From an uncultured bacterium (GTDB lineage: Bacteria > JAJVIF01 > JAPKYR01), in NCBI GenBank assembly GCA_965369865.1, contig CBDURU010000004.1:7201-71200 (forward strand): DNA of 64,000 nucleotides. The letters are read 5' to 3'. Positions 7,402 through 56,564 of the stretch are shown one piece after another. The notes under the pieces are model-generated. The model did no database searches, was not told the origin of the DNA, and saw only the letters and a program-made list of their open reading frames with translations. Positions within the stretch are counted from its first letter, which is position 1. Each line of letters begins with the position of its first letter. The translations under genes and the position numbers were made by a program.

Positions 7402-7403
7402 AA

Positions 7404-27300: not shown

Positions 27301-28079
27301 GTCCAAGGATGTACGCGTACAGGTCGGTATGGAATGTCCCGCAAATAAAGCATGATGGATGGATTCCAGCTACCGATGAAGATTTCATTGATGATCCGGG
27401 TGATGAAAATTTCCTGGCAGAAGAAAATGAAACATCCGAAAATTTCGAGCTGCCGTCAAGTGAATGGGGAAATCTAGCGCATAAGCTTATGGAGAAAGTC
27501 GATTTCGATGCTACTGAGGACCGGATCCGGACAACTGTGGAAGGACTTGTTGATGAAAATAACCGCGATCGAGTGAACATATCGCGGTTGGCTGAAATGG
27601 CCGTAAAAACTCTCAAGCTGCCGATTTTTCAATCGTTTGAGTCATTTAAAAAGGAGTATCGTCTGATCGGGAAGATTGGCGATTCAAAAGAAACCGTGCT
27701 GGGGACCCTGGATTTACTTCTGGAGAAAGATGGAAAGCTATTAGTTATCGATTACAAGTCAGGAAAGGTCAAAGAGGATGAAACTCCAGAGAAAGCCCGG
27801 TCATATTCAGCGCAGCTTTCGGTCTACGCTCATCTTGTGTCGGCTTATAAAAACATCCCGCTTGATAAAATCGAAACATGGATAATTTTTCTCCACCTGG
27901 CGAAACCTGAAAAGGTCGATTTATCGGAGGAAGATTATGAGGGGACATTGGAAGTGTTGAAAGATTTAACCGAATCGTCGAGGAAGAATGTATTCAAGGA
28001 AGATCCCAATGAGAGTAATTGCAGATGGTGTGATTACAGGGATATTTGCGGGTCTGCATGGTCGGCATCAAAACAATGA
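24294..28079 (+). CDS. addA: ATP-dependent helicase/nuclease subunit A (AddA, UvrD-like SF1 helicase with a C-terminal RecB-type nuclease)
   Basis: About 1261 aa from the ATG at 24294; the six-frame ORF extends back to 24183. Helicase motifs present are motif I (SAGAGTGKT), Ia (TFTRKAA), VDEYQD and a later YGFRDA. The C-terminus has DYKSGK and CRWCDYRDIC. Confidence 0.85.
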   Translation: MAENLTRSQIAATTIPVGILIVSAGAGTGKTTVLSHTVTGKMVAADNAKIDELLVLTFTRKAAVEMAERIAERLKEMAGESEDREEKKRLLDAASQVPDAAIETLDAFAVKMLRDNPSETGLDPDFEVLSEERNLEIGHEAGRKLLEDWLAHPPHELWPEVVKGIELENWPWIFHRLDQHLMTRRAMNLPALLMGRDAGTDEDIDKIIRELKEERDRRFRECLNEILGEIEPIDELIEETIRIGEEGGQKFTEKAKQVQEVLPELLAWLKAKNLDWNASIIQKVSKWQLFRTSKDEPGEANRLVKLLRNHLTSDTKSVKDIEKSERLRALSLETEMFKYRLPLASALMEFHNAALLARRSHNALSFADCEIEALDLLENFPAIRNKYNKQYRYVIVDEYQDINPLQQELIFKLARQSKEKTELPSNLYVVGDERQSIYGFRDADFRLLRNLRVNMQGVRDKNAGDRILNENFRSRPQILNFTNHLFRTIWGSRSDTNEIEHTDLKPSFEYYFRDGESERPRIELHVIKAGDSITGKLREAAVVAKRIYEIVNNKEIQITEKTGSVRKIEWGDCAVLMSKRAGLSLMEHALSSLGVPFVTESGGGFWDTSEASDLISLLYCFSKSVDNLDWAVLLRSPIIGISDDGLMEISLVSDRGNWRDVFKTVSLGDDSNRRKLATFIDWFESVEKSAGRVPVTELVDKAMQSSGYLEKAFAQDRGRVIRANIEKFISFLMAEPDLFDPGVAANYLTWLRDENVQAAQAGVAPADNKGAVVLATVHASKGREWPLVVLADLNSGGRSNRPENLTWDENSGLGFKWLNPATGESESSSSHHAASEVANERDNSESKRVMYVALTRAREYLILSGYLQLNKKKDGWIGFKENDFKKRTNSSWLSAIDYVFTQTEESFVGKPDDDPATELTLMVAEPQDPESDKGPMPLEKRNVELKVKRVIHDKTPDLKPAAGQKTELGDRYRAKLKSITRLPEPVTNRYLITATEIANFEKCPRMYAYRSVWNVPQIKHDGWIPATDEDFIDDPGDENFLAEENETSENFELPSSEWGNLAHKLMEKVDFDATEDRIRTTVEGLVDENNRDRVNISRLAEMAVKTLKLPIFQSFESFKKEYRLIGKIGDSKETVLGTLDLLLEKDGKLLVIDYKSGKVKEDETPEKARSYSAQLSVYAHLVSAYKNIPLDKIETWIIFLHLAKPEKVDLSEEDYEGTLEVLKDLTESSRKNVFKEDPNESNCRWCDYRDICGSAWSASKQ

Positions 28080-31920: not shown

Positions 31921-32583
31921 ATGGATAATTTTAATGGAAATCACGACAGTCCTTCCCCAACCGAAAAACCTACAGTAGAAAAACAAAGCCCACCACCAGA
32001 TTTTATAGAATTTTACAGGAATATTCCGAATGAAAATCTTAAGAAAATATTCTTGGGGGCAATCCTAGTCCTGTATTCAAAGAACGATGATAAAATTGCT
32101 TTGGCTTCACATGGTTTTAGGGAGTTCATGGACCATTTCCCTGGAGAAATGGGAAAAATTCCTTATCAATCAATAACTGACACAATTGAAGAAATTAAGA
32201 AACCAGTAAAATCATGGAAGAAATTAGGAGGAGAAACAACTAAAGAAAAAGTACTAGAATCAATGGTAGATTATTTAAATTTTTTAAATATATGGAAGGC
32301 TTTTTATAAATGGTTTGAAGGTGGATATATTGCTCAAACTGATCGATGGATCCAAGCAAGTATTAATATTGATCCATCATTGGAAGAAGTTCCGGATGAT
32401 TACCACGACAGCCAAATCAAACAAATCGTAAAATTAAAAAAATTTTTTATAGATGCGCTCCATCATAAGAAGGACCCAAGTTTTGATGAAATGATCAAAT
32501 ATATCCGATGGTTAACACGACTCTACAAACTTTTACTACAAGCAAAAAAAAATAATCTAGATAAAGAAGAAGGTGCAATATAA
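31921..32583 (+). CDS. Hypothetical Lys-rich protein, first gene of the AT-rich two-gene island
   Basis: 220 aa with no recognisable motif. Its TAA stop overlaps the ATG of the next gene (TAATG). It is strongly AT-rich relative to flanking genes. Confidence 0.5.
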   Translation: MDNFNGNHDSPSPTEKPTVEKQSPPPDFIEFYRNIPNENLKKIFLGAILVLYSKNDDKIALASHGFREFMDHFPGEMGKIPYQSITDTIEEIKKPVKSWKKLGGETTKEKVLESMVDYLNFLNIWKAFYKWFEGGYIAQTDRWIQASINIDPSLEEVPDDYHDSQIKQIVKLKKFFIDALHHKKDPSFDEMIKYIRWLTRLYKLLLQAKKNNLDKEEGAI

Positions 32584-35366
32584 TGCCTTCAAGCAAGGAT
32601 ATTTTTAAGCAAATATCTCAGCTCAATACAGACGCTGAGAAAGCATTTTTTGTGAATCAAATTTCAACGCCCGAATATTTACCTGTGCTGAGGGATCTAG
32701 GATTTTTTTCCACTCCACCCTTACCTATTAAAGATGATAAAGGCGTTAAATTTGAATTATGGTATGCATCTCGCTATCTCTTAAGAATTGCTGATAAAGC
32801 GCCTGCAGAGGTTATGGCGGTAGCGAAGGAAATTCCAGAAACTGAAAATTTTCGAGTACACGAGGATATTCTCGATATTTTAATCAAGATTCCAATCACA
32901 TTTGCCCTTGAATTTCTAACAATAGACAAAGCAAAATATTTCCTTGAGAATCCATACAATTATCAAGCTCCTGATAAGATATCTGAAATTATCAGGGGGG
33001 CCGCCCTTGCAAATCACCCTGATGAAGCTCTCAATCTTGCTGAGTTAGTATTTGTAATTACCTGGCAATCTAAATTTTCAGAATTTGACGGTGAGGAGGT
33101 TGATATTGGGAATTTATTTCCTAAATTCTTTAGATCTGGAGGAAGTTATGATTTTGAAAAACAAATTCGTGCATGCAGGATTCCCCTTATTGATTGTGCC
33201 GGATTTAAAGCTGTCAGGTTCTTTCTGGATTTACTCAGCAAAGCAATCTCTATTTCAAAAAACAAAGGCAAAACAGAATACTCGTGGGTATGGCTTCCAG
33301 CAATTGAGGAGCACGAGCAGAACGCAAGTTCAGGACTCGAAGCTGTTCTTGCAGCAAATGCAAGAGATACACTTGAGTATGTTTTCGAAATAAACCCAGT
33401 TTGGTTAGATAAAGCCCGTGAATTGCTGAGCAGATATAAGCACATTATTTTTAAGAGATTGGATTTACACATTCTAAGGCTTTTCGCTGAACAGAATAAA
33501 GCGGATGTAGTTAATCGACTTCTGGATAAGGAATTATTTAAAAATCCAGCTTGTTATCACGAGTACACACTTCTATTACATGAGCAGTATTCTAATCTCA
33601 AACCTGTGAACCAAAACAAGTTTCTCAATTTCATTGCTGAAATTGAAGGGGATTATATAGAATCTACTCAGTTTAAATGGTTGGATTTAATTAAGAATCA
33701 CCTGAAAAATAATTGGTTAAAAAAATATAAAACGTTGCAGCAAAAATATGGAGACCCTCCTTTCCCGACTTTTCTAAGTTATACAGAATCCGGACCTTGG
33801 TCAGGTCCAACTAGTCCTCTTGAAGATTTGTCCTCAATGACAGTAAAAGAAATTACTGATTTCCTTCAAACATGGAAACCTAGTGGTGAGAGGACATGGC
33901 CTCCTGAGCCATCTGCAGTAGGGTTGGGAAGGCAGCTAAAGAATGAAATTGTAGAACAACCCGTAAAATTTGCTAAAAATGCTGCAATGTTTATAGGTGT
34001 GAACCCAAAATTCCTTATACATGTCTTTTTTGGATTTCAGAATGCTGTCAAGGGCCAGGAAAAATTTGAGTGGGATAGCATCCTGGAGCTTTGCCTGACG
34101 ATAGCGAAGGGAGATTCTGGTAATTTACTTTCGGATGCAAGCACCTTATCTGAAGCCCGAAAACATGCGGCTGGCCTTTTAAAAGAAGGATTCAACAAAG
34201 GTGTGAATGAGATCCCATATAAATACAAAAAAATATCCTGGGATATCCTTGTACACCTAGCAAAAGATCCTGATCCATCACCATCTGATGAGCAAGGCTC
34301 TGGAATGGGTCCATCTCTGCAAGCCATTAACTCAGCTCGCGGCACAGCGATTGAAGCAGTAATCCTTTATGGTATTTGGCACTGGCGCAATCTCCAGGAA
34401 GTGGATAAATGGCGAGGTGTTGAATCAATACCTGAAGTTAGAGAATTACTTGAATCTCATCTCGATCCCAAAATTGACCCCTCACCCGCAATTCGCTCTG
34501 TATATGGTATATATTTCCCCTGGTTCGAAGGAATGGACAATGCCTGGGCTAAGAAAGTTGTAGATATAATATTTCCATTGGATAAAGATCAGGTACTTTT
34601 CAATGCTGCATGGGAAACATATATTTCATACAACCATGTTTATAATAATGCAGCAATGATTTTAACAACTCGGTATGAAAAGGCAATTAGGAACCTTGAA
34701 GTATTTGATAAAGATAATGTCACAATAGGTGACCCTGAAGCAAGGCTCGCAGAACACATGATAGTCATGTACGAACGAGACTTGATAGGCGAACCAGACG
34801 GAGACAGCCTATTCAAATTGTTTTGGGATTATGCACCTCTCTCTGTAAGAAAGCACGCTATTTCCTCAACAGGGATTTCTCTAAGCAATACAGAAGGTGA
34901 AGTTCCAGAACAAATAAGAGAAAAATTAATCAATCTAATCAAATTCAGGATTGGAGTATTAAAGGATAAACCACTCAATGACCGGTTTGAATTAACAGGT
35001 TTTCAGGAATGGTTTAACAGTGAGAAATTCGATATGAGTTGGGCGATTGCCAGTTTGTTAAAAATTCTAGAACTTACTGAAGGTCAACTTGAGCATGGAT
35101 GGGTAACTGTAAAAAAATTGGTTGAAATCGCAGACCAATATCCTGAGCAAGTAATTAAATGTCTTTCATTAATCCTCCTCAATGATACAAGTGGATGGGT
35201 AGTTATGGGTTCTGGAAGGGAAGTAGTCCCAGCATTATTAGAGATAAAAAATAAATCTTCGGAAATAAAGCAGCTTGTAGAAGAACTTGGTGAAAGTCTG
35301 TTTCAGCAAAAGAGATTTGAGTATGCAGATCTTATGGATAAGAGTAAACTAATAATCCCTGACTAA
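32583..35366 (+). CDS. Large hypothetical alpha-helical protein (927 aa), second gene of the AT-rich island
   Basis: Long uninterrupted ORF, AT-rich, with helical-repeat-like composition. No P-loop, nuclease or other catalytic signature was recognised. Confidence 0.5.
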   Translation: MPSSKDIFKQISQLNTDAEKAFFVNQISTPEYLPVLRDLGFFSTPPLPIKDDKGVKFELWYASRYLLRIADKAPAEVMAVAKEIPETENFRVHEDILDILIKIPITFALEFLTIDKAKYFLENPYNYQAPDKISEIIRGAALANHPDEALNLAELVFVITWQSKFSEFDGEEVDIGNLFPKFFRSGGSYDFEKQIRACRIPLIDCAGFKAVRFFLDLLSKAISISKNKGKTEYSWVWLPAIEEHEQNASSGLEAVLAANARDTLEYVFEINPVWLDKARELLSRYKHIIFKRLDLHILRLFAEQNKADVVNRLLDKELFKNPACYHEYTLLLHEQYSNLKPVNQNKFLNFIAEIEGDYIESTQFKWLDLIKNHLKNNWLKKYKTLQQKYGDPPFPTFLSYTESGPWSGPTSPLEDLSSMTVKEITDFLQTWKPSGERTWPPEPSAVGLGRQLKNEIVEQPVKFAKNAAMFIGVNPKFLIHVFFGFQNAVKGQEKFEWDSILELCLTIAKGDSGNLLSDASTLSEARKHAAGLLKEGFNKGVNEIPYKYKKISWDILVHLAKDPDPSPSDEQGSGMGPSLQAINSARGTAIEAVILYGIWHWRNLQEVDKWRGVESIPEVRELLESHLDPKIDPSPAIRSVYGIYFPWFEGMDNAWAKKVVDIIFPLDKDQVLFNAAWETYISYNHVYNNAAMILTTRYEKAIRNLEVFDKDNVTIGDPEARLAEHMIVMYERDLIGEPDGDSLFKLFWDYAPLSVRKHAISSTGISLSNTEGEVPEQIREKLINLIKFRIGVLKDKPLNDRFELTGFQEWFNSEKFDMSWAIASLLKILELTEGQLEHGWVTVKKLVEIADQYPEQVIKCLSLILLNDTSGWVVMGSGREVVPALLEIKNKSSEIKQLVEELGESLFQQKRFEYADLMDKSKLIIPD

Positions 35367-46863: not shown

Positions 46864-47247
46864 ATGCCAGAAACCAATGAATTAATCGTACTTTTTATTG
46901 CCATCGCCATGGGCGCGGTTGGCCAGATCGCCATGAAAGCCGGTATGAACCGTGTTAAGGAGAAATCCGGCGGTGATCTCGGCCCTATGATCAAGGCCCT
47001 TCCCAGGATTTTCACCGATATCTATGTCCTTGCCGGGGTAACTATTTATGTGTTGTCGACGGTGCTCTGGTTATGGGTTCTTTCGAAAGTGCCACTCTCG
47101 TTCGCTTACCCGTGCATCAGCATCAGTTATATCATCATCATTATTGCAGGAAAGTGGGTATTTAAAGAACGGATCGATAAATGGAAAATCGCGGCGATCG
47201 TGCTGATCCTGCTCGGAGTCGCGGCGTTAGGATTGAGTGAAATATAA
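46864..47247 (+). CDS. Small 4-TM DMT/SMR-like membrane protein (half-transporter A)
   Basis: 127 aa with four predicted TM helices, EamA/SMR-like. It overlaps the next gene by 1 nt. Confidence 0.55.
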   Translation: MPETNELIVLFIAIAMGAVGQIAMKAGMNRVKEKSGGDLGPMIKALPRIFTDIYVLAGVTIYVLSTVLWLWVLSKVPLSFAYPCISISYIIIIIAGKWVFKERIDKWKIAAIVLILLGVAALGLSEI

Positions 47248-47672
47248 TGGCCTCCACTCCCGAAACAGCAGGGAAAACAGCATCAATAACGATGGTAATT
47301 TTCATCATCTCGATGGTGTTCCTGGCAGGTGTTGGGCAATTATTCATTAAATATGGGGTGAATCAGGTCACCGATCAAATCGGCCATTTCCCAACCGACC
47401 CGGTGGGATTCATTAAACTTGTTTTCTTCTGGCCGGTATTCTCGGGACTGTGCATCTATTTCTTCTTCGGTATGGCATGGTTGAAAATACTCGCCGATGT
47501 GCCGGTTAGCTTTGCATTCCCTTTTCTTGCGATCAGTTATATCGTGATAATTATTGGAAGCTACTTGTTCCTTGGCGAGAATATAAACATCCTGAAACTA
47601 TTCGCTATTGCGCTCATAATTATGGGTGTAATCTGCCTCTCCCGTTCCGATACAACCCAGGCCGCAACGTAA
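47247..47672 (+). CDS. Small 4-TM DMT/SMR-like membrane protein (half-transporter B)
   Basis: 141 aa with four predicted TM helices, a paralog of the preceding gene. The pairing resembles ArnE/ArnF or paired SMR heterodimers. Confidence 0.55.
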   Translation: MASTPETAGKTASITMVIFIISMVFLAGVGQLFIKYGVNQVTDQIGHFPTDPVGFIKLVFFWPVFSGLCIYFFFGMAWLKILADVPVSFAFPFLAISYIVIIIGSYLFLGENINILKLFAIALIIMGVICLSRSDTTQAAT

Positions 47673-47874: not shown

Positions 47875-50040
47875 GTGTCCGGATCAAATAACTTATCCCT
47901 GCTTCTGGCATCAAACAATGATTCGCTTGCAAACGAATTAATTGATGCCGGTTTAAATATCTCCCGCAGTAGCGACGGTTTCGAAACTATCCGCATGGCC
48001 ATTGAATCGAACCCGGACGCGGTTATCCTTGACTGTAAAAACAATGGGCTTCCACCTCCTTCAGTGGCAATCTGGTTAAAACTGAACCCATCGACTCATT
48101 CACTCCCTGTCATAGGTTTAAACGGAGGTGAAATGTTCTGGCAGGAGGCTGTGATCGATGCGGAAATTCCGTATGGCGATTCAATCGACAAACTTGTCTC
48201 GATCACAGAAGAACTGGTCAGAAACAAACGTGTGCTCAGTGATCAGGATAAAAACGAGATAATTCAGAATTTTGATCCATTGGATATAACCCTGGACCTT
48301 ATTTCAACCTACCGGGAACGTCTCGGGCTGGCAAGTGCCATGATCGAGCTCGCAAGCCTTCAGCATGACCTTGGCGATTTCGAATACACGATTAAGTCAA
48401 TTCTTGAGGTGACCGGACATGCAATTGGAAGCAAGCTGGTAGCCCTTACGCTTATTCGAGAGCGTTCGCATTATATCCTGGTGCGCGGTAACGATTCCTG
48501 CGATTCAGATCTGGTAAAGCTCGAGGATTATTCCTTATCGAGACTAAACGAGTATATGGACAAACCGGTTGAAATTGACGACCAACTGGTTTTTGGACGT
48601 CGCAAGGTTAATAAAAATGCCGGGAATCCTGAGATTGAATGTAATTTTTTCGGGCATCCGATTTATTCAAGCGGTAAAACCCTCGGCTACCTGTCAGGTA
48701 TAATCGAAAACGATCATTCCACACAATATCTATATGATGGACTGCTTTCCGATCTGACCGCTCAAATCGCGCTTTTACTTGTTAACACCGAACTGATCGA
48801 AACACACGACAGCTATGTAGGTGAACTTTCGAAGGTGCTTCGAGCGGTCGTTGAGGTTTCAAGTATCAGCCCCCTGTCGGAAACCACATCGAAGGGCTTT
48901 CTCCTTCAGTTTCTCCTGATCGTTCTCGAACTCTGTAACACAAACAAGGGTTGCGTAATTCTTTACGATTCGGAAAGTGAGGAGATAGAAGATGTCGCCG
49001 CGCTTGGGGTGGAAGAGAATGAGATTCTCTCGTCCCGTATGGACCTTGGGAAGAGCCTCATAGAAACTCTACCGGAGTTGCCGAAATCGGAAGTTCATAT
49101 CGACACGGCAAATCTGGGGCACGGAAGAATATCCAGGCTTGTTGTGCCGCTTGCCGCAGGTGAGAAAATTATGGGCGGACTGGTTGTTCTTGGATTCCCG
49201 CTCAATTTAAGTCCCAGGATCATCAAGTCGGTTACCACACTGGCGACGCTGGCAGGGTACTTCCTCGACAATCGTGCCCTCCATCAACACAGTATAAAAA
49301 CATCGATTATGGAGGACCAGCTTAAGTTCGCCAGGGAAATCCAACTGGAAATGTTGCCCGACGGTAATCCCGAGTACCCCGGTTACGATATTTTTGGATG
49401 CAGTATTCCCGCTAAAGAAGTGGGGGGAGATTTCTTCGATTACCTGCGGCAGGACGGTCTACTGGGTATTTCGGTCGCGGATGTGTGTGGAAAAAGCATA
49501 CCCGCAAGCCTTTTAATGACAATGACACGTGCTCTCGTGCTCTCGGCATCCGAGTCTCGCGATCATCCCAACGAGGTCATGCAGTCGGTTAATGCACTGC
49601 TCACCCGGATAATTACCAGGGGTAAATTCGTGACGAGTTCGTTACTTTATATCTCTAAGGATAATATCGATTACGCGTCCGCAGGACACCAGCCTCTTCT
49701 TGTTTACCGCGCCGCAAATGATGAATTTGAAGAGATCGATCCCGATGGAGTAGCACTTGGAATTGTTGAGCATATGGATTTTGAACACGTCAATTTTAAG
49801 ATGAACGGCGGGGATATTGCCCTGATGTTCACTGACGGGCTTAACGAGGCAATGAACTCGAAGCGCGAGCAGTTCGGATACGAAAATATACGCACTATTA
49901 TCCGATCAAACTCGGCAAAAGGGGCGCAGGAGATTGTGGATACATTATTTAATGCCATCAGGAACCATGCCGGTGGCGCAGATCAGTTCGACGATACCAC
50001 TATTGTGATTATAAAGAAAATCAAAGAAGGGAATGAATGA
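47875..50040 (+). CDS. Receiver-like domain / GAF / PP2C (SpoIIE-RsbU family) serine phosphatase
   Basis: 721 aa from a GTG start. It has an N-terminal CheY-like segment (AVILDCK), central GAF-like regions, and a C-terminal PP2C domain (VGGDFFDYL, ISVADVCGKSIPASLLM, FTDGLNEA, QFDDTTIVI). Confidence 0.75.
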   Translation: MSGSNNLSLLLASNNDSLANELIDAGLNISRSSDGFETIRMAIESNPDAVILDCKNNGLPPPSVAIWLKLNPSTHSLPVIGLNGGEMFWQEAVIDAEIPYGDSIDKLVSITEELVRNKRVLSDQDKNEIIQNFDPLDITLDLISTYRERLGLASAMIELASLQHDLGDFEYTIKSILEVTGHAIGSKLVALTLIRERSHYILVRGNDSCDSDLVKLEDYSLSRLNEYMDKPVEIDDQLVFGRRKVNKNAGNPEIECNFFGHPIYSSGKTLGYLSGIIENDHSTQYLYDGLLSDLTAQIALLLVNTELIETHDSYVGELSKVLRAVVEVSSISPLSETTSKGFLLQFLLIVLELCNTNKGCVILYDSESEEIEDVAALGVEENEILSSRMDLGKSLIETLPELPKSEVHIDTANLGHGRISRLVVPLAAGEKIMGGLVVLGFPLNLSPRIIKSVTTLATLAGYFLDNRALHQHSIKTSIMEDQLKFAREIQLEMLPDGNPEYPGYDIFGCSIPAKEVGGDFFDYLRQDGLLGISVADVCGKSIPASLLMTMTRALVLSASESRDHPNEVMQSVNALLTRIITRGKFVTSSLLYISKDNIDYASAGHQPLLVYRAANDEFEEIDPDGVALGIVEHMDFEHVNFKMNGGDIALMFTDGLNEAMNSKREQFGYENIRTIIRSNSAKGAQEIVDTLFNAIRNHAGGADQFDDTTIVIIKKIKEGNE

Positions 50041-50819
50041 AAATGGCTGCAACCAAAACATCAAGGAAAAAAATCAGGAAAAGTACAACTCGAAAAAGTA
50101 CCGGAATTAAGAAATCGACAACGGTTAAGACTGTCGGAAAAAAATCCCGCACTAAAAAAACTACTTCAGGAACCAGGGCAAAATCATCCAACACTAAAAT
50201 TACAGCGACCCGCCCTGATGTTGTTGGACTTCCGGAACAGGATAAACACCTCGTTGGGAATGTACTCAACACCGAAACAACTCCTGGGATTATTCCGGAG
50301 TTGCCGATAGAGCCTGAACCACGCACCGACATTTCGATCGACCGGATCGCGTCAGAGATCTCGAGCACTGACACTGACTTCGGAAAAGGGTCGGAGCTGA
50401 ATACCGGGACAACCTCACAGGAAACCATGGTTACTGCGATTCTCCCTGATGGCGGTTTCGATATCAGCCGTAAGGTCCTTGCGCGAATCGCATCACTGGC
50501 CGCGAATGAGATCGATGGTCTCCTCCCTCCGCGCAACGATGCGTTTATTAAATTGATCGATTCTATGCATGGACGCACCGACGGCATAAAGGTCAATGTC
50601 GGGTCGACTGAAGCCGCGGTCGATATGCATATCCGTGTGCAATATGGAACCCATATCCCCGATGTGACCGAACGCCTTCGCGAAAACATCACCAGGCGTA
50701 TTCATCAAATGACCGGTCTCAAAGTCACGGAAATCAACATAAGGGTCCAGGATGTGACAACGGCGGATGATCCTCAGCCTGAAAAAACTGCCGGTGATCG
50801 GCATGCAACTGCTTTGTAG
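50037..50819 (+). CDS. Asp23/Gls24-family (DUF322) protein with a Lys/Thr/Arg-rich N-terminal tail
   Basis: 260 aa. The C-terminal half (ISRKVLARIASLAANEIDGL...EINIRVQDV) matches the alkaline-shock-protein-23 family. The first about 70 aa are highly basic (KKIRKSTTRKSTGIKKSTTVKTVGKKSRTKKTTS). The start overlaps the upstream stop (ATGA). Confidence 0.6.
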   Translation: MKMAATKTSRKKIRKSTTRKSTGIKKSTTVKTVGKKSRTKKTTSGTRAKSSNTKITATRPDVVGLPEQDKHLVGNVLNTETTPGIIPELPIEPEPRTDISIDRIASEISSTDTDFGKGSELNTGTTSQETMVTAILPDGGFDISRKVLARIASLAANEIDGLLPPRNDAFIKLIDSMHGRTDGIKVNVGSTEAAVDMHIRVQYGTHIPDVTERLRENITRRIHQMTGLKVTEINIRVQDVTTADDPQPEKTAGDRHATAL

Positions 50820-50865
50820 CGCCAGGCCTGGATAAAACCAATCGAGGGCGAACAAGCAGGTTGTT

Positions 50866-53800
50866 ATGGGTAAATTTACAAAAATATGCAGCATCGGATC
50901 AAACTGGATCTCAATCCTGAGATCCAGTAAGAACAGCATGCTTTTCGTAATGGTGATCGCCTGTTTTTCCCTGCTGTTGTATTCAGGTATCGTTTACTTC
51001 TCAACAACCAACCGGGTCATGGAACGACAGGTTATTAACCTTGCCATTTCAAGCCTGGTTGCGACTCTCAGCAACGCCTATCCCTCAGCGATTAACAGTT
51101 TCGCCGCCGGTTCCAGCAATATTGAGGTTATTGAATCCCTGCAGAATCCTGCAGCCGATCACACCAACGCTGACCATTTCATCCCTTTCATCCTGATCGG
51201 TAATATGGAAATCATCGGTGGAAGTAATCTTCCCAATCATATAGAGGCCGACCTGGTGAAGGTTTTAAGTGCGGACCCTTTTTCCCGGAACCGATTCCCG
51301 TTGGGTGATGAATATGCCGATTCATACATTGTGAAATCAGGCAGAGGTCTGTTTGTTGCAGTAGTCTCACCGGTTACCGAATCCGGCGTGCGGATCGGTT
51401 TGCTGCGCGATATCAAATACCTGCTTTCCTTCGCAGGAAAAATCGAACGTGCTCTTATCGGTTACATGGTCCTGGCTTATCTGGTGTTAATGGTACTCCT
51501 CGTCATTGTACTAAAGATTATCACAAAGCCCCTGGTAACCCTCACCGCTGCCGCAGAGCGTTATGCTAAAGGGGATTTTGATTTCACTGTAGCTGTCCAA
51601 ACCGGTGTCACTGAAATGATAATACTGACCGACGCGTTCAATCGCATGGGAGAAGAGCTTAAACTCCAGCATCAATCGCTCGAGGCGTATTCCAACAAGC
51701 TTGTCGAAGCGAATCGCAAGGTGAGTTCGGTAGTTGAAAAACTCAGCATTCGGAATTCTGAACAACAGGTGATGATCGAAGCATCCCTTAAGGCCAATAA
51801 GCTTGCAACGTCCAATGACGTGGTCAGGATGATGATGGAGCTGCTGAGGGATAATCTCAATCTGGAACACCTTGTTTATTTCCTTGAAAATGAAAATGAA
51901 GAATTAATTCCAATGGCTTATCCATGGCTAACTGATCCAGACATGGATACGATAGATGAAAAAACATTTAATGCGGTAAAAGCCTGCCTGGATACCCTCG
52001 AACCACAAATTGTCCCGGCTGTCCGGGAGGGAGCGTTCCATCTTAATATGTTAAGCGACAAGCTCTATATTCCTGTCTCAAATATACTTGGCAGACTGGG
52101 GGTACTTGAACTCACTTCCGACATTGGAAAATCATTCGATCCTGAGACTCAACAGTTCTGCATGCATTTTATTACCCACATGGAAGTAATTATCAGGAAC
52201 AAATCCCTGTACCATGAGACAATTCGAAGGAGCCACGAACTCGAACGAATCAACCAGATCTCTCAGGCAATTTCCGGAAAGCTTGATATGGAGCCGCTTA
52301 TCAGGGATGTTGTCGAATACACCGAGAGCACTATCAAGGCCGATTGTGCATTCGTAGGGCTTATCGTGAGATCCAGGCTTGAAATTATGCATATACAGCC
52401 CGATGTACCGGGTATCGAATCCTGGGCCGTGGATATTGATAAGAATAATATAATTTCCACAATCGTGAATTCGGCTCAGGAGCTGCTTATCAGCGATATC
52501 CATGATAGCGTGGATTATTTCGATGAAATAAACAGCCCTTTCATCAAAGCTAATGGTTTTAATTCAATTATTGGCTGTCCGATTCTCAACAAGGGCCAGG
52601 TTACCGGTGTTATCTGTGGATTTTCACACAAAACCAACGCGTTCACATCAAGCGACGCCTATTTCCTTGGCCTTCTGGCAAGCCAGGTTGCCATCGCACT
52701 GGAGAATGCCAGGTTGTTTGATGAGATTCTGACTCGAGACAAACGAAGGGATCATCAGCTCAAGATGGCTCAGAAACTCCAGGCTGACCGAATGCCGGCC
52801 TTCTTCAAGCAGAATGTCGCCGCGGTAAGCTGTGAACTTCAGCCTGCCGATGAGCTTGCCGGTGATTTCTGTGATGTATTCTCTCTGGGTCGTCACTCGA
52901 TTGCCATTGTTATCGGTGACGTTGCCAATAAGGGTGTTGCCGCAAGCCTGATGACATTCAGCATTCTCTCCATGTTCAGAAACGTTGCTAAAACCCTTAA
53001 ACCCCCATGCGATATCCTCGACACGATTAACCGTTCACTGATCGGTCAGGTCAAAGAGGAAGGCTGGTTCGCCACAGCTTTTTACGGTAAGCTAAACACA
53101 AATACAGGCACTTTCACGTACTCTTCGGCAGGACACGAGCAGCCGATCTGGTATCATGCCGATACCGGTGAAGTTGAGAAACTTGATGTTGAGGGTTATC
53201 CGCTTGGACTCTTCAAGTGCTTCACCTATGAAACCGGCGAATTTGTATTGAAAAAGGGTGATCGGATCGTTTTTTATACCGATGGGGTCACTGACGCGGT
53301 CGATGAAAATAATAAGCGTTTCGGCCACCATAGACTGCTTGGTTTTGTCGCTGACAGTGGACATCTTTCAGCCGAGGAATTCACCTCAACCCTGGTAAGG
53401 AAGGTCGAAGAATTTACAGGGGGACGTAAGCAGAAAGACGATATAATCGTTTCGATGCTGGAAATGCAGGAGGACCCCTGGATACATAAGTCAGTTAAAT
53501 TCTCGGAATCCGCCCAGCTTATACAGGACATCCTCGACGGGCTTGCCCCATATGAGCTTTCTCCTGAAGAAACTTATTCGATCCGCCTCGCGATTGATGA
53601 AGCCCTTGCAAATGCCTGGAAGCACGGACTCAATGAGGATGATCAGGCACCATTCAAAGTCAGTTACCTTATCGCAGATGAAGGATTCAGGATTCGGGTC
53701 ACAGATCCCGGTTCCGGTTTCGATCACGAAAGCCTGCCTGATCCGACCGTTCCCGAAAACCTGTATAAGGCCAACGGACGGGGCGTGTTCCTCATCCGCC

Positions 53801-54039
53801 AGATGATGGATGAAGTCGAATATAACAGTAATGGCAACGAAATTTCCGTAATGAAACGATTTGTGCCATCTGATGACCGCGGAGAGGGAACCTACGATGA
53901 CCTTGTCCTGCCTGCCAGGCTTGACATCGTTAAACAGCGGTCGTCCCTTGACAAGGCTAAAACCGCAGAAGCTTCCAATGAAGATGAGGTTTCGGAAGCT
54001 GATAAAGCTGATAATATTGTCAAGCCCCAATTCGATTAA
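50866..54039 (+). CDS. Membrane HAMP / GAF / PP2C phosphatase / HATPase_c (RsbW-SpoIIAB-like kinase) fusion protein
   Basis: 1057 aa. It has an N-terminal TM, a periplasmic segment, a second TM and a HAMP domain (TLTAAAERYAKGDFDFTV). GAF-like regions follow, then a PP2C domain (AGDFCDVF, IGDVANKGVAASLM, YTDGVTDA). The C-terminus is a GHKL ATPase of the anti-sigma-factor type (ALANAWKHG...DPGSGFD...GRGVFLIRQMMDEVEY). Confidence 0.75.
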   Translation: MGKFTKICSIGSNWISILRSSKNSMLFVMVIACFSLLLYSGIVYFSTTNRVMERQVINLAISSLVATLSNAYPSAINSFAAGSSNIEVIESLQNPAADHTNADHFIPFILIGNMEIIGGSNLPNHIEADLVKVLSADPFSRNRFPLGDEYADSYIVKSGRGLFVAVVSPVTESGVRIGLLRDIKYLLSFAGKIERALIGYMVLAYLVLMVLLVIVLKIITKPLVTLTAAAERYAKGDFDFTVAVQTGVTEMIILTDAFNRMGEELKLQHQSLEAYSNKLVEANRKVSSVVEKLSIRNSEQQVMIEASLKANKLATSNDVVRMMMELLRDNLNLEHLVYFLENENEELIPMAYPWLTDPDMDTIDEKTFNAVKACLDTLEPQIVPAVREGAFHLNMLSDKLYIPVSNILGRLGVLELTSDIGKSFDPETQQFCMHFITHMEVIIRNKSLYHETIRRSHELERINQISQAISGKLDMEPLIRDVVEYTESTIKADCAFVGLIVRSRLEIMHIQPDVPGIESWAVDIDKNNIISTIVNSAQELLISDIHDSVDYFDEINSPFIKANGFNSIIGCPILNKGQVTGVICGFSHKTNAFTSSDAYFLGLLASQVAIALENARLFDEILTRDKRRDHQLKMAQKLQADRMPAFFKQNVAAVSCELQPADELAGDFCDVFSLGRHSIAIVIGDVANKGVAASLMTFSILSMFRNVAKTLKPPCDILDTINRSLIGQVKEEGWFATAFYGKLNTNTGTFTYSSAGHEQPIWYHADTGEVEKLDVEGYPLGLFKCFTYETGEFVLKKGDRIVFYTDGVTDAVDENNKRFGHHRLLGFVADSGHLSAEEFTSTLVRKVEEFTGGRKQKDDIIVSMLEMQEDPWIHKSVKFSESAQLIQDILDGLAPYELSPEETYSIRLAIDEALANAWKHGLNEDDQAPFKVSYLIADEGFRIRVTDPGSGFDHESLPDPTVPENLYKANGRGVFLIRQMMDEVEYNSNGNEISVMKRFVPSDDRGEGTYDDLVLPARLDIVKQRSSLDKAKTAEASNEDEVSEADKADNIVKPQFD

Positions 54040-54148
54040 TAATTCCCAACTGGCCAACCTGGGTGGTAAATAAAAATTCTCAAACATCGATGTTCAGGGG
54101 ATTTAATGTTGTTAGAGGTGTTTCATGCTGCTATAATCGCTCTGAACA

Positions 54149-55603
54149 TTGGGAGGACCCGTTATTATGAACAGGTATCTTACCTACCAGGAAGGGGAGT
54201 TCCTCTTCGAAGATGTAGCCTTGAGCGAGATCGCGGAAGAAATGTACACTCCGTTCTACGTGTACTCCAAGGCGGCGATATTTGAAAAAGTTGAGGCCTT
54301 CAAGCAGGCTTTTAACGATGTAAAGCCCATGATGACTTTCAACATGACGGCTCTCGACACCACGTTGATCCTGAAAATGCTGCAGGAGCGTGGATGTTCC
54401 CTCGCTGTCTCGAACCTGTCGGAGCTGAAACGGGCTATCGCCATCGGCTTCCCGCCAACATCAATCATTTTTAACTCATGCGGTGTCGCGGATCACGAAA
54501 TATCCGACCTCCTTAAAATCAAACCATTAATAATAAATGTCAGCAGTATTTTTGAGCTCGAACCTCTCAATACGTTTGGTGTAAAACTGGACACTGGCGT
54601 CAGGGTCGGGCTCAGGATCAATCCTGGAATAGATGTCGGAGGACTGGAAGGCGCGAACTCAGGCGCATCCGACAGCCGCGTCGGCATACAGAAAAATGAG
54701 TTAGATCTCGCGCTGGCTATGATCGAAAAATTTCCGCAGCTTAATTTTGTGGGGATCGCCTGCGACTTGGGCAGCCAGGTTGCCACACTCGCCCCCTGGA
54801 TCAAAATGTCCCAGGACATGGCCGCTCTCTACAAGGAAATTAAAAATAAGGGGCATAATCTCGAATACCTCAACCTCGGTGGTGGATTCCCCGCAGCTTA
54901 CAAGGATGTCGATTACCTTGAAATAAAGAAAATCGCGCGGAATATTATCCCCCATGTGGAGGATATCGAGTGTTGTATCGTTCTACAGCCTGGACGATAT
55001 TTCACCGCTGAATCAGGGGTTCTGGTTACTTCCGTGCTTGGTGTAAAGGAAGCCGGTGCTAAAAAGTTCATCATCTGCGATGCTGGATTTTCCGAGTTTC
55101 CACGTTCCGCTCTGTACCGGATAAACCATGAAATCGTACCGGTCAAAGAACCCGCTGCTCCCATACCTGAACAAGCGTCCGCATTCGGAATTGGCGGAGA
55201 TTCGACAGATCCTGTCGATGCAGCTACCGGCATGCACGATCCGGGTGAAATAATGGACCGTTCTGAATTGCCCGGTGAAGATGCGGTTGCCCCCCTGGCC
55301 GCGGAGCAGACCGAAGTCCCCTCAACTCCCGGTGACGCGGAAACGGTCCAACTGGTAGGGCCGGGTTCCGATGGACTTGATTATCTCGCCAGGGATGTCG
55401 AGATGTTTATTCCCGAAAGAGGCGACCTGCTTGCTGTCCTGAATGTCGGCGCCTACGGCAGGACGATGTCGAATAATTTAGAGTCAAGGCTCAAGCCCCC
55501 TGAAATTTTGATCGAACGGGATAAGTTTGAACTCATCAGGGAACGCGAAGTAACCGACGACCTGATTGGTCTTGACCTTGAAGAAAGCGGCATCGAGGTT
55601 TAG
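54149..55603 (+). CDS. Fold-type III PLP-dependent decarboxylase homolog (LysA/ODC family) with divergent active-site motifs and a C-terminal insertion
   Basis: 484 aa. A TIM-barrel N-terminal domain (TPFYVYSKAAI) is followed by DLGSQ, GGGFP and a beta-sandwich C-terminal domain (GAYG, GPGSDGLD). The low-complexity insert PAAPIPEQ...AETVQL sits before the GPGSDGLD motif. Confidence 0.65.
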   Translation: MGGPVIMNRYLTYQEGEFLFEDVALSEIAEEMYTPFYVYSKAAIFEKVEAFKQAFNDVKPMMTFNMTALDTTLILKMLQERGCSLAVSNLSELKRAIAIGFPPTSIIFNSCGVADHEISDLLKIKPLIINVSSIFELEPLNTFGVKLDTGVRVGLRINPGIDVGGLEGANSGASDSRVGIQKNELDLALAMIEKFPQLNFVGIACDLGSQVATLAPWIKMSQDMAALYKEIKNKGHNLEYLNLGGGFPAAYKDVDYLEIKKIARNIIPHVEDIECCIVLQPGRYFTAESGVLVTSVLGVKEAGAKKFIICDAGFSEFPRSALYRINHEIVPVKEPAAPIPEQASAFGIGGDSTDPVDAATGMHDPGEIMDRSELPGEDAVAPLAAEQTEVPSTPGDAETVQLVGPGSDGLDYLARDVEMFIPERGDLLAVLNVGAYGRTMSNNLESRLKPPEILIERDKFELIREREVTDDLIGLDLEESGIEV

Positions 55604-55688: not shown

Positions 55689-56564
55689 CTACTTTTCTGG
55701 CTTCAGAACTTTTTTAACGCTTGAATACGCCATAAACCCGGTAATTACGATCGTTATTAACATTACCAGGATGACTAGAAGAATATCAATTACTGGTATT
55801 CCACCAGATACAAGGAGACTATATAATCCTGCCCAATTAACAAGAACAACGTTAATAAACCAGAATATAATCCCAATGCATCCAAAAATTATGTAACTCA
55901 AGATTACATTCCTGAATCTAAGGCTCGTGAAGATCGCCAGCAATGCGTAACTTACCATCAGACCCACATGGACCAGGAGAGAAACGGATAACTGGAATGG
56001 ACCAGGCCCGGGCAGGCAGAATATAAACGGATTGTGTGCATAAAAAGCAGATATGCTGTAAAACAGCCGGGCAACCAACGTTACTGTCGGATAAATGGCA
56101 AACGATATCATCTGCAAAACTACCAGGGATTTAAATCCGTCCATTGGGTTTTGACTGATAAGATTGAGCTTCCCGCTGTCCGCATCATGCCTCATAAGTA
56201 ACCGTCCCGGCCAGTGAAGTATCCAGATCGCGTAGAGAAATCCTGCAAACAGCACAAAATATATAGGTGTCAATCCGGGTGCAAGCCGGCTCAGGGGATT
56301 AATGTAGATAGGATTGCCCTGCGTTCCATAAATATAGATCGCCGGAAGGATGATCAGGTAGATCAGCTCGAAAATGAGACCGGTATTTCTGACAGGTTCG
56401 TCTTCGATCATTTTTCTGGCCAGAATCGACAGGAACGGATCCTTGCTCCGGCTTATCAACCTGAGCAATTGAAGGCGTGGTGAAAATCTCGCTAACCCTG
56501 TAAGTTCAATTTCCGAAATACCGGAGGTTTGACTCACAGTGGAGTCGGATTGTGTAGTTACCAT
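55689..56564 (-). CDS. Hypothetical polytopic membrane protein
   Basis: 291 aa with about 7 hydrophobic helices. No family was recognised. Confidence 0.45.
   Translation of the reverse strand: MVTTQSDSTVSQTSGISEIELTGLARFSPRLQLLRLISRSKDPFLSILARKMIEDEPVRNTGLIFELIYLIILPAIYIYGTQGNPIYINPLSRLAPGLTPIYFVLFAGFLYAIWILHWPGRLLMRHDADSGKLNLISQNPMDGFKSLVVLQMISFAIYPTVTLVARLFYSISAFYAHNPFIFCLPGPGPFQLSVSLLVHVGLMVSYALLAIFTSLRFRNVILSYIIFGCIGIIFWFINVVLVNWAGLYSLLVSGGIPVIDILLVILVMLITIVITGFMAYSSVKKVLKPEK

Follow-up and report, generated by a model that had tools for sequence, protein, structure and literature searches.

A clade-restricted gene triad links an Asp23-family protein to two PP2C phosphatases and an RsbW-type kinase without a STAS gene in cis

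Introduction

Partner switching in the SiaABCD system of Pseudomonas aeruginosa has a non-sigma output. The phosphatase SiaA is a membrane HAMP-PP2C protein, kinase activity resides in a separate protein, SiaB, and the operon also encodes the substrate SiaC; no Asp23 protein belongs to the system. In Rv1364c of Mycobacterium tuberculosis, the PP2C and RsbW domains belong to one chain, which ends in a C-terminal STAS domain of its own. SypE of Vibrio fischeri unites an RsbW-like serine kinase with a receiver and a PP2C domain in one protein, and SypA, one small partner of SypE, is encoded in the same locus. The hsbR and hsbA genes are adjacent to each other, as are crsR and crsA. SypE has been described as a serine kinase, and SypA as a STAS protein (PMC10120452). 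HsbR of P. aeruginosa and CrsR of Shewanella oneidensis are REC-PP2C-kinase/anti-sigma proteins, described as pairs with the STAS partners HsbA and CrsA, respectively (PMC6482189). Within the Asp23 family, Staphylococcus aureus Asp23 is membrane-bound and its loss leads to an envelope-stress response (PMC5437119), and YqhY/RfaA is a protein adaptor (bioRxiv 10.1101/2024.02.19.580884). No link of this family to PP2C or RsbW enzymes is described in the literature searched.

The locus reported here, from a clade of uncultured Planctomycetota, encodes three proteins, g1, g2, and g3, of which g3 can be compared with each of these enzymes. Like SiaA, g3 is a membrane HAMP-PP2C protein, but its kinase is fused and an Asp23 protein is present, unlike in the Sia system. 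Like SypE, it holds kinase and PP2C in one protein, whereas SypE has the order kinase-REC-PP2C and a STAS substrate in its locus. The contiguous PP2C and RsbW domains are shared with Rv1364c, which ends in STAS, whereas g3 ends in a 61-residue acidic tail, too short for STAS. HsbR and CrsR, in which a PP2C domain followed by an RsbW-type kinase/anti-sigma domain in one polypeptide toggles the phosphorylation of a small partner (PMC6482189), share this domain order with g3 but are soluble and have an N-terminal receiver input, whereas g3 is a two-TM HAMP-GAF sensor without a STAS gene in cis, and its neighbours are an Asp23 homolog and a further PP2C. The fusion of PP2C and RsbW is already known as a common design; the feature particular to this locus is the clade-restricted triad, and the missing STAS together with the possible Asp23 link is presented as a lead.

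Organization and conservation of the triad

In the window (the whole 64-kb stretch of DNA analysed), the ORF list gave three same-strand ORFs at exactly the coordinates of the first-pass annotation, which had called them co-directional. They are g1 (47875-50040, + strand, as are all features below), a 721-residue soluble REC-like-GAF-GAF-PP2C phosphatase (Pfam SpoIIE, AF2 model, 16 orthologs); g2 (50037-50819), a 260-residue Asp23-family protein with a basic, S/T-rich tail (Pfam Asp23, 28 orthologs); and g3 (50866-54039), a 1057-residue membrane sensor of the order HAMP-GAF-PP2C-RsbW-type kinase (Pfam, orthologs). The start codon of g1 is GTG, with GGAG 5 nt upstream. The ATGA overlap by which the first-pass annotation had coupled g1 and g2 is present in the sequence (g1 stop TGA at 50038-50040, ATG at 50037-50039), but the in-frame ATG at 50043 is more likely to be the true start of g2, since the orthologs begin with MP/MA-T-x-KT and an AAGGG Shine-Dalgarno-like motif is better spaced for this codon. 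With either start, the gap between g1 and g2 is at most 2 nt.

Upstream of g1 lies a syntenic EamA/ArnE-ArnF-like pair of 4-TM half-transporters (46864-47672; Pfam EamA, weak NCBIfam ArnF/ArnE matches), which is probably a separate transcription unit; a 203-nt AT-rich gap lies between the pair and g1. Downstream of g3, after a gap of 110 nt, follows a syntenic diaminopimelate decarboxylase (lysA-like) gene (54149-55603; Pfam; NCBIfam lysA 295.5 bits, just under the cutoff of 297.9) with its own promoter-like site at 54109-54137.

The gene order was conserved in the relatives, in at least 14 distinct lineages, with g1 and g2 overlapping or separated by no more than 16 nt and with a g2-g3 gap of at most 65 nt, apart from one exception of 113 nt. 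In orthologs at 47-96% identity, both PP2Cs and the kinase kept their catalytic motifs without change. Every tail-bearing Asp23 ortholog was located between g1 and g3 orthologs in a strict 1:1 link, and no case of this subfamily outside the triad was seen among the loci examined; distant Asp23 proteins without the tail had no g1 or g3 homologs flanking them. Judged from these sequences, the three genes form a tight, clade-restricted predicted operon whose members always occur together.

The triad is part of a syntenic block of about 12 genes, PgeF-OEP-ABC-Yip1-MFP-EamA-EamA-g1-g2-g3-lysA-(308-aa membrane protein), which is retained in relatives with g3 only about 50% identical, pointing to slow rearrangement in the clade. 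Because synteny extends so far, the adjacency of g1, g2, and g3 is weak functional evidence, and the clustering could be meaningless, with three independent genes held together by the conserved gene order alone. We regard this as very unlikely, since within the block only these three genes overlap or lie mostly no more than 65 nt apart, against about 70-575 nt at the outer flanks of the triads, since two paralogous signalling enzymes around one small protein represent typical operon logic, and since the tail-bearing Asp23 subfamily keeps to the triad.

Domain structure of the phosphatases and the kinase

The REC-GAF-PP2C organization first annotated for g1 was recovered and extended by a further GAF-like domain, so that g1 is predicted to be a second, soluble PP2C with its own input, a degenerate receiver and two GAF domains. 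The Pfam scan gave no REC match; the REC-like domain, possibly a pseudo-receiver (residues 5-120, 47887-48234), was recognized from the N-terminal (beta-alpha)5 fold of the AF2 model (mean pLDDT 80) and from weak PDB sequence matches of residues 8-125 to receivers (best 2zay at 8.7e-4). Among the orthologs (n=16, 46-96% identity), Asp53 was near-invariant, and the receiver Thr/Ser and Lys positions varied. The first GAF domain (residues 165-330, 48367-48864) had no Pfam match above threshold and was assigned by hhalign comparison with the profile of the g3 GAF (probability 93.4%, E 2.4e-7), by the AF2 secondary-structure pattern, and by Foldseek, in which g1 matched 6ob8, a REC-GAF dual-sensor kinase, at 3e-8. 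The second GAF-like domain (residues 335-480, 48877-49314) was suggested by a sub-threshold Pfam GAF_2 match (E 0.009), hhalign (E 0.002, probability 14%), and the alpha/beta pattern of the AF2 model. The SpoIIE-family PP2C catalytic domain (residues 527-714, 49453-50016; Pfam SpoIIE E 1.5e-41) contained the motifs GGDFFDY, ADVCGK, TDGLNE, and DDTT, invariant among the orthologs, and Foldseek matched it to RssB, SiaA, SpoIIE, and Rv1364c at 1e-12 to 1e-11. The solved structure of the Rv1364c RsbU-RsbW domains (3ke6) was matched both by sequence (1.3e-6) and by fold (1.4e-11), and the SiaA structure 6k4e was among the top PDB matches of g1.

As annotated at first, g3 is predicted to be a membrane HAMP-GAF sensor with an intact PP2C domain and an intact RsbW/SpoIIAB-type GHKL domain at its end. 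The hydropathy scan placed TM1 (residues 20-48), an extracytoplasmic loop of about 145 residues, and TM2 (residues 193-230) at 50923-51555; residues 1-223 had no match in the Pfam scan, the loop belonging to no recognised family. The HAMP domain (residues 217-266, 51514-51663; Pfam E 2.2e-7, 31.5 bits against a cutoff of 25) is followed by a cytoplasmic region (residues 275-470, 51688-52275) with no Pfam match and no profile match to GAF, REC, or STAS, and then by the GAF domain (residues 474-612, 52285-52701; Pfam GAF E 1.4e-13, GAF_2 E 1.6e-12). In the SpoIIE-family PP2C domain (residues 677-866, 52894-53463; Pfam E 1.5e-47), the residues D667/D670, D685, D806, and D858-D859 were invariant among the orthologs (47-93% identity), and the best NCBIfam match of this region was SiaA (2e-16, far below the cutoff).

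The GHKL serine-kinase/anti-sigma domain (residues 894-996, 53545-53853) matched Pfam HATPase_c_2 at E 1.6e-25 versus 4e-5 for HATPase_c, NCBIfam RsbW at 1e-12, and, in the PDB, RsbW at 9e-7 and SpoIIAB at 6e-6 to 2e-5, with the best histidine kinase at 0.69. A histidine-kinase core with a missed DHp domain, which the first-pass annotation had kept in view, was rejected, since the RsbW/SpoIIAB matches were far better and the 27 residues between the PP2C and ATPase domains leave no room for DHp. The same annotation had considered phosphatase and kinase in one polypeptide to be unusual; this was not upheld, because the architecture is established in HsbR, CrsR, SypE, and Rv1364c, and 729 representatives in a library of 1.84 billion proteins matched at E<=1e-30. 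About 120 of the best 150 matches covered both domains in one stretch, and the contiguous pair, present in hundreds of 50%-identity clusters, is not unusual.

The mostly acidic C-terminal tail of g3 (53854-54036; net charge -5 to -13 in 7 of 9 orthologs) contains the motifs YDDLVL and KQxxSLxKA, with D1011, L1013, S1027, L1028, and A1031 invariant. These invariant residues, including S1027 in KQxxSLxKA, would suit a GHKL domain without a separate substrate, working as an intramolecular regulator or pseudo-substrate (e.g. by Ser1027 autophosphorylation) or purely in anti-sigma/protein binding. In that case the two PP2Cs would dephosphorylate proteins targeted by Hanks-type kinases whose genes lie elsewhere, and g2 would be a mere co-expressed stress protein. 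The best PDB match of the domain, 9qih 'SenB', points the same way, as it was deposited with a paper on LvrC, a Rec-Bergerat putative anti-sigma factor with which we infer SenB to be identical. Such a role is nevertheless distinctly improbable: the N-box (E912/N916), G1 (D947-x-G-x-G951), and G2 (G971-R-G973) ATP-binding boxes, invariant in the orthologs, argue for a genuine activity that depends on nucleotide, the scan of the window gave no sigma-70 family gene, and we know of no precedent for C-tail autophosphorylation in this kinase family.

STAS and sigma factors around the triad

In agreement with the first-pass annotation, no STAS gene was found in the window: the Pfam scan of its 53 ORFs gave neither STAS nor sigma-70 domains, and the STAS HMM found nothing in all window ORFs of at least 40 aa (best E 0.28). 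Nor was there, next to the orthologous triads (at least 14), a STAS gene or sigma factor of the kind that this annotation had named as a point to check, and no STAS gene lay within 8-10 kb on either side of about 20 related loci. The same kind of inspection detected STAS in two control loci. The closest non-orthologous PP2C relatives were located in canonical SpoIIE-STAS-HATPase_c_2 clusters, from which we take the family to act on STAS proteins in related organisms. Nor did a candidate target (e.g. a sigma factor or diguanylate cyclase) emerge.

The Asp23-family protein and the possible working of the module

Like other members of the Asp23/Gls24 family (S. aureus Asp23; B. subtilis YqhY/RfaA and YloU), g2 has a bona fide Asp23 (DUF322) domain (residues 140-240, 50454-50756; Pfam E 9e-26, 90.9 bits against a cutoff of 28), modelled by AF2 as an alpha-beta fold with pLDDT 66-87. 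This domain showed no likeness to STAS: the closest PDB folds were CDF transporter C-terminal domains, and the profile comparison with STAS gave no match. Unlike distant Asp23 homologs, g2 has a disordered N-terminal extension of 140 residues with a basic, S/T-rich tail. This tail (residues 1-60, 50037-50216), noted at first as K/T/R-rich, contains 21 K+R, 23 S+T, and 0 D+E (net charge +21), with AF2 pLDDT below 50. Among the 28 orthologs collected, all full-length members keep it by composition and not by sequence (13-21 K+R, 12-26 S+T, and few or no acidic residues in the first 60 positions), and no single Ser/Thr position reaches 90% conservation. The linker (50295-50363) contains the motif PELPI (residues 87-91) and the short helix IDRIASEIS (residues 101-109), the sole helix predicted by AF2 within residues 1-140; P87, P90, and I104 are at least 90% conserved. 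The predicted disordered tail is, by this comparison, clade-specific.

Going by gene position and composition, either the Asp23-like protein or its tail may serve as phospho-substrate, as the first-pass annotation had proposed. In such a switch without STAS, the g3 kinase would phosphorylate several Ser/Thr residues of the tail, the two PP2Cs would reverse this, and charge neutralisation would free the tail from an anionic surface, be it the membrane, nucleic acid, or the acidic C-tail of g3, as a MARCKS-like electrostatic switch. This would fit the constant placement of g2 in the g1-g3 interval, with tiny gaps or an overlap, the tail composition common to all full-length orthologs and missing in the distant Asp23 proteins that g1 and g3 homologs do not flank, the acidic g3 C-tail with its conserved motifs, and the lack of STAS in cis, whereas the control loci reveal STAS where it is present. 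We still consider g2 unlikely to be the substrate. To our knowledge, all known substrates of RsbW/SpoIIAB-type kinases and of SpoIIE-family PP2Cs are STAS or STAS-like in fold, and the Asp23 domain model resembles the CDF domains instead. In addition, the tail has no Ser/Thr position conserved at the 90% level, the adjacency may be merely inherited with the block of about 12 genes, and the literature searched links Asp23 to partner switching only as a sigma-B reporter.

The reading that we prefer, and to which we give an even chance, is that the triad is a lineage-specific Ser/Thr phospho-signalling operon of the RsbU/RsbW partner-switching class, with a STAS substrate elsewhere and the Asp23 protein as a co-expressed partner or effector. 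Upon an envelope or extracytoplasmic signal, g3 would change from kinase to phosphatase mode or back, as in the HsbR/CrsR/SypE-type fusions, and thereby determine whether one small partner is phosphorylated; g1 would add a cytoplasmic input that also dephosphorylates this partner. This partner would most likely be a STAS protein, assumed to be encoded in trans elsewhere in the genome, because all characterised substrates of both enzyme classes have the STAS fold. g2, predicted to be co-transcribed, may serve as a local effector or adaptor of the module at the membrane; members of its family are associated with the membrane and act as envelope-stress proteins or adaptors. A gene for an AmaP-type anchor was not seen adjoining g2, and its basic tail may stand in for such an anchor by binding anionic lipids.

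Among the characterised systems that can be checked, STAS is kept nearby (HsbR-HsbA, CrsR-CrsA, and the two control loci) or fused (Rv1364c), which counts against a partner encoded in trans, and the 1:1 link of the tail-bearing Asp23 protein with g1 and g3 would also fit g2 as the real substrate.

Organization and conservation of the gene triad

The first-pass annotation had described three co-directional genes with an ATGA junction between the first two, and both points were borne out by the ORFs and the sequence. The genes g1 (47875-50040, + strand), g2 (50037-50819, +) and g3 (50866-54039, +) encode a soluble phosphatase, an Asp23-family protein and a membrane sensor with PP2C and RsbW-type kinase domains, respectively. 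The ATGA consists of the g1 stop codon and the first ATG of g2 at 50037. A second in-frame ATG, six bases downstream, matched the ortholog N-termini (MP/MA-T-x-KT) better and also lay at a more favorable distance from the AAGGG ribosome-binding motif; with either start, g1 and g2 abut.

The relatives carrying these genes were uncultured Planctomycetota MAGs according to GTDB. In the genome and metagenome collections, no fewer than 14 distinct lineages carried the triad (g3 identity 47-93%), and the order g1-g2-g3, the conservation of which had been left to be checked, was the same in all of them. Across these triads, g1 and g2 overlapped or were separated by at most 16 nt, the gap between g2 and g3 was mostly at most 65 nt (113 nt in one case), and the neighboring genes flanked the triad at gaps of about 70-575 nt. 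All Asp23 orthologs with at least 45% identity lay within a triad, and the Asp23 proteins with at most 41% identity lay outside triads. A metagenome scan for a wider association between Asp23 and PP2C returned just the same clade and unrelated Asp23 contexts. The conserved order extended beyond the triad as PgeF-OEP-ABC-Yip1-MFP-EamA-EamA-g1-g2-g3-lysA-(308-aa membrane protein), and since this wider order is also kept in the clade, adjacency alone is weak evidence for shared function. Synteny without any function, a reading to which this wider conservation lends weight, was considered a very improbable account of the triad and its short internal gaps.

Upstream of the triad, and syntenic in all relatives, lay an overlapping pair of 4-TM EamA-type half-transporter genes (46864-47672, +), weakly similar to ArnE/ArnF, the subunits of a lipid-linked sugar flippase. 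These 127-aa and 141-aa ORFs were considered as an RsbV/RsbW pair, which their sizes would fit, but the idea was rejected on account of their EamA/ArnE-ArnF-like 4-TM character. The decarboxylase gene downstream of g3 was lysA-like (295.5 bits against the NCBIfam cutoff of 297.9), compared with about 35-40 bits for speA and nspC, and a polyamine theme combining an SMR-like pair with an Orn/Arg decarboxylase was therefore dropped. In a promoter and terminator scan the counts were at chance level, save for a promoter-like site (10/12) before lysA. At 55689-56564 (-) there was a gene for a 291-aa multi-TM protein with no Pfam or NCBIfam match, and a 308-aa counterpart occupied the same place after lysA in three relatives' loci (L001, L014 and L015).

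Domain architecture of the membrane protein g3

Two hydrophobic segments (residues 20-48 and 193-230) enclosed a loop of about 145 residues in g3, and Pfam assigned a HAMP domain at 217-266, a GAF domain at 474-612, a SpoIIE-family PP2C domain at 677-866 (E 1.5e-47) and an HATPase_c_2 domain at 894-996 (E 1.6e-25; generic HATPase_c, 4e-5). The RsbW/SpoIIAB type proposed for the C-terminal domain was confirmed by the agreement of HATPase_c_2 with the PDB and NCBIfam matches. In the PDB sequence search the kinase domain matched 9qih, named ‘SenB’ (1.9e-11), RsbW (9e-7) and SpoIIAB (6e-6 to 2e-5), and in NCBIfam it matched RsbW at 1e-12, below the equivalog cutoff, and SpoIIAB at 9e-7. The entry 9QIH was deposited with a paper of the LvrB/LvrC study on LvrC, a Rec-Bergerat putative anti-sigma factor, and we infer that it is LvrC; the name ‘SenB’ was used by no paper in the literature searched. 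A histidine kinase with an overlooked DHp domain, which the first-pass annotation had raised as the reading that would overturn its own, was rejected: no HisKA match was obtained, only 27 residues separate the PP2C domain (ending at 866) from the ATPase domain (starting at 894), and the best histidine kinase match in the PDB had an E of 0.69.

Among nine g3 orthologs at 50-93% identity, the N-box (E912/N916), the G1 box (D947xGxG951) and the G2 box (G971-R-G973) were invariant, as were the PP2C aspartates D667/D670, D685, D806 and D858-859. Since these catalytic motifs and those of the g1 PP2C are invariant, both enzymatic activities, phosphatase and kinase, are probably real, as judged from residue conservation.

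Beyond the kinase domain, g3 has a mostly acidic C-terminal extension (53854-54036, residues 997-1057), with invariant residues (Y..DDLVL, KQxxS1027-L-xKA) among orthologs at 50-93% identity. This extension may serve as a docking helix or as a site of autophosphorylation. That the fusion protein regulates itself, the second option of the first-pass annotation, would agree with such invariant residues if the C-terminal tail were the site of control, and we regard it as a doubtful explanation of the module. The acidic tail of g3 contrasts with the basic tail of g2. Two further parts of g3, the extracytoplasmic loop (51010-51441) and residues 275-470 (51688-52275), were conserved and matched no Pfam family and no local GAF, REC or STAS profile.

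Domain architecture of the soluble phosphatase g1

A SpoIIE-family PP2C domain (PF07228) occupied residues 527-714 of g1 (E 1.5e-41), with its Asp motifs invariant among the orthologs, and hydropathy analysis revealed no hydrophobic segments in g1 or in g2. The outline REC-GAF-PP2C given earlier for g1 proved right on PDB sequence, AlphaFold2 (AF2), Foldseek and profile-profile evidence, despite the lack of any Pfam Response_reg match in its N-terminus even at E<=10. Residues 8-125 gave a consistent run of weak receiver matches in the PDB sequence search (best 8.7e-4), and the AF2 model, built with 17 orthologs (mean pLDDT 80), placed a (beta-alpha)5 domain at the N-terminus, with the elements E8-12/H16-24/E28-32/H35-45/E49-52/H61-70/E79-83/E96-99/H104-116, followed by two alpha/beta domains split by long helices and then by the PP2C domain. 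The non-PP2C Foldseek matches included the REC-GAF dual-sensor kinase 6ob8 (3e-8). Residues 165-330 aligned with the g3 GAF domain at a probability of 93% in the profile-profile comparison (hhalign), in which residues 335-480 were weakly GAF-like; the Pfam GAF_2 match, at 0.009, was sub-threshold. At the active site of the receiver-like domain, the phospho-acceptor D53 was near-invariant among orthologs, the position at the end of beta4 was N in g1 of the window and N, S, T, H, G, E or K among orthologs, as against the Thr/Ser of receivers, and no conserved Lys followed beta5. With Asp53 kept and the conserved Thr/Ser and Lys absent, the domain may be a pseudo-receiver.

The Asp23-family protein g2 and its basic tail

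Proteins of the Asp23/Gls24 family are abundant and conserved, and their mechanism is poorly understood; Staphylococcus aureus Asp23 associates with the membrane through an AmaP-type anchor protein. The Asp23 domain (PF03780) of g2 spanned residues 140-240, scored 90.9 bits (E 9e-26; Pfam cutoff, 28 bits) and covered positions 4-107 of the 108 in the Pfam profile; in the AF2 model it formed a compact alpha-beta domain (pLDDT 66-87). A STAS-like fold of this domain was rejected, as no STAS protein was among its PDB matches in Foldseek, which were weak (E ~1e-3) and were all C-terminal domains of CDF transporters. In NCBIfam, part of g2 weakly matched the AmaP C-terminus (8.5e-5; 22 bits, cutoff 55), and no match to AmaP was found in the neighbors g1, g3, the EamA pair and lysA.

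Residues 1-140 of g2 were predicted to be disordered save for a short helix at 101-109, and the first 60 residues, which have a net charge of +21, included 23 Ser/Thr and lacked acidic residues. The composition of this tail was kept in all full-length orthologs while its sequence drifted, and the N-terminal extension was absent from distant Asp23 proteins. P87 and P90 of the motif PELPI, together with I104, were conserved in at least 90% of the g2 orthologs, and no Ser/Thr of the tail reached this level at any single position. In the N-terminal 110 residues (50043-50363), the conserved extreme N-terminus MP[TA]xKT, the near-invariant PELPI and the short amphipathic-looking helix sIdeIsxxIs are candidate docking motifs.

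These features bear on the proposal of the first-pass annotation that g2, or its tail, is the phospho-substrate. In such a STAS-independent switch, the fused kinase and the two PP2C domains would add phosphates to, and remove them from, several sites in the Lys-rich Ser/Thr tail, and its electrostatic attachment to the membrane or an anionic partner would thereby be switched. In favor of this switch, the tail-bearing subfamily occurs strictly together with the g1 and g3 enzymes, but with conserved phospho-sites absent from the tail and the precedent of the enzyme families against it, we consider it unlikely.

Search for STAS and sigma factor genes in cis

No STAS or sigma-70 domain was found by Pfam in the 53 ORFs of the window, which comprise essentially all its plausible genes, and no STAS domain was present in the precomputed Pfam annotation within +-10 kb around the orthologs. 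Because a phmmer search with two STAS sequences was insensitive, a local STAS HMM was used instead, built from four sequences, two of them real STAS proteins from control loci. This HMM recovered an independent STAS protein in locus L013 at 2.7e-17 and gave no match in the window, where the best E was 0.28, or in any triad locus. The control loci were those of the nearest non-orthologous PP2C relatives, of which P0014 lay in a canonical SpoIIE-STAS-HATPase_c_2 cluster, and the distant P0022 was accompanied by STAS and HATPase_c_2 in a type III secretion locus (L033/L034, 7696-11968), an arrangement similar to those of Bordetella Btr and Chlamydia Rsb. Given these controls and the recovery in L013, STAS genes near the triads would have been detected. 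A cryptic STAS domain within g1, g2 or g3 had an hhalign probability of at most 1.1% everywhere against the small STAS profile, in what is a weak test. The anti-sigma type of the HATPase_c domain and the lack of a STAS gene in the window, both asserted from first inspection, thus agree with Pfam in cis, the latter also with the local HMM.

Comparison with known partner-switching systems

The enzymatic parts of a partner switch are present in the triad: its SpoIIE/RsbU-family PP2C domains keep their Asp motifs, and its RsbW-type domain keeps the N, G1 and G2 boxes. Of the other parts of an RsbU/RsbW/RsbV switch, no STAS antagonist was found in cis and no sigma-70 domain among the window ORFs. 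SypE reportedly combines kinase, REC and PP2C domains, in that order. SypE is named a serine kinase, and SypA its STAS partner (PMC10120452). The REC-PP2C-kinase/anti-sigma proteins HsbR and CrsR have as their partners HsbA and CrsA, which are STAS proteins (PMC6482189). As in HsbR and CrsR, the PP2C domain of g3 (677-866) is directly followed by the RsbW-type kinase (894-996) in one polypeptide. Unlike them, g3 begins with a TM-loop-TM-HAMP-(unassigned)-GAF region in place of a receiver input, the REC-like domain of the module resides on g1, which has no kinase, and the gene adjoining g3 encodes an Asp23 homolog, with no STAS protein in cis to correspond to hsbA or crsA.

The fusion of PP2C and RsbW-type kinase stressed in the first-pass annotation turned out to be ordinary. 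Besides HsbR and CrsR, Rv1364c is an established case, and g1 matched the solved structure of its RsbU-RsbW domains in the PDB sequence and Foldseek searches. When g3 residues 640-1002 were compared with 1.84 billion representatives, 729 proteins matched at E<=1e-30, and about 120 of the best 150 of these aligned in a single stretch over PP2C and kinase; several such fusions had also appeared in the first homolog searches. What sets the locus apart is that an Asp23 homolog holds the middle position of such a module, an arrangement found nowhere else in the data or literature searched; in the literature, Asp23 combined with partner switching, PP2C or SpoIIE retrieved only sigma-B reporter uses and noise from residues numbered ‘Asp23’. 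The locus groups partner-switching enzymes around an Asp23 protein in a way specific to its lineage and is not a new class of system; the observation made at first inspection was confirmed, and its interpretation was partly supported.

Proposed mechanism

Partner-switching modules are among the most widespread stress-signaling devices of bacteria. To our knowledge, all substrates of these kinase and phosphatase families have the STAS fold, and by analogy the small partner of the module would most likely be a STAS protein encoded elsewhere in the genome, a reading held with about even confidence. With such a trans-encoded STAS partner, g3 would integrate an extracytoplasmic or envelope signal and g1 a cytoplasmic one, both would jointly set the phosphorylation state of the partner, and g2 would be a co-expressed effector or adaptor near the membrane, where its basic tail might stand in for the AmaP anchor. 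The membrane-bound state of Asp23 and its relation to envelope stress (PMC5437119) are consistent with g2 as a membrane-proximal effector or adaptor, and so is the adaptor action of YqhY/RfaA (bioRxiv 10.1101/2024.02.19.580884).

With a STAS partner encoded elsewhere, the locus would be just another lineage-specific combination of familiar parts, of importance mainly for the annotation of Planctomycetota MAGs. If instead the g2 tail is phosphorylated, it would be the first direct regulatory input for the enigmatic Asp23 family and the first non-STAS substrate of RsbW-type kinases. The clade keeps a tail-bearing Asp23 protein fixed among two PP2C domains and an RsbW-type kinase, and no STAS gene was found close by; this offers the concrete hypothesis that Asp23 proteins may be phospho-regulated outputs of such modules.

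Other features of the window

A gene for an N6/N4 DNA methylase (PF01555, E 5e-55), followed by a 382-aa ORF without Pfam match, occupied 14437-16450 (+) in a low-GC stretch (0.39 vs ~0.5) and is probably part of a type II restriction-modification island. At 31921-35366 (+), two ORFs without Pfam match (220 aa and 927 aa) lay where the GC content of the window is lowest (0.355-0.417), in what looks like horizontally acquired DNA. Ordinary housekeeping genes were represented by a glycogen cluster with GH57 branching enzyme, GlgA and GlgC (5827-10179, -) and by an AddB/AddA-type helicase-nuclease pair (21275-28079, +).
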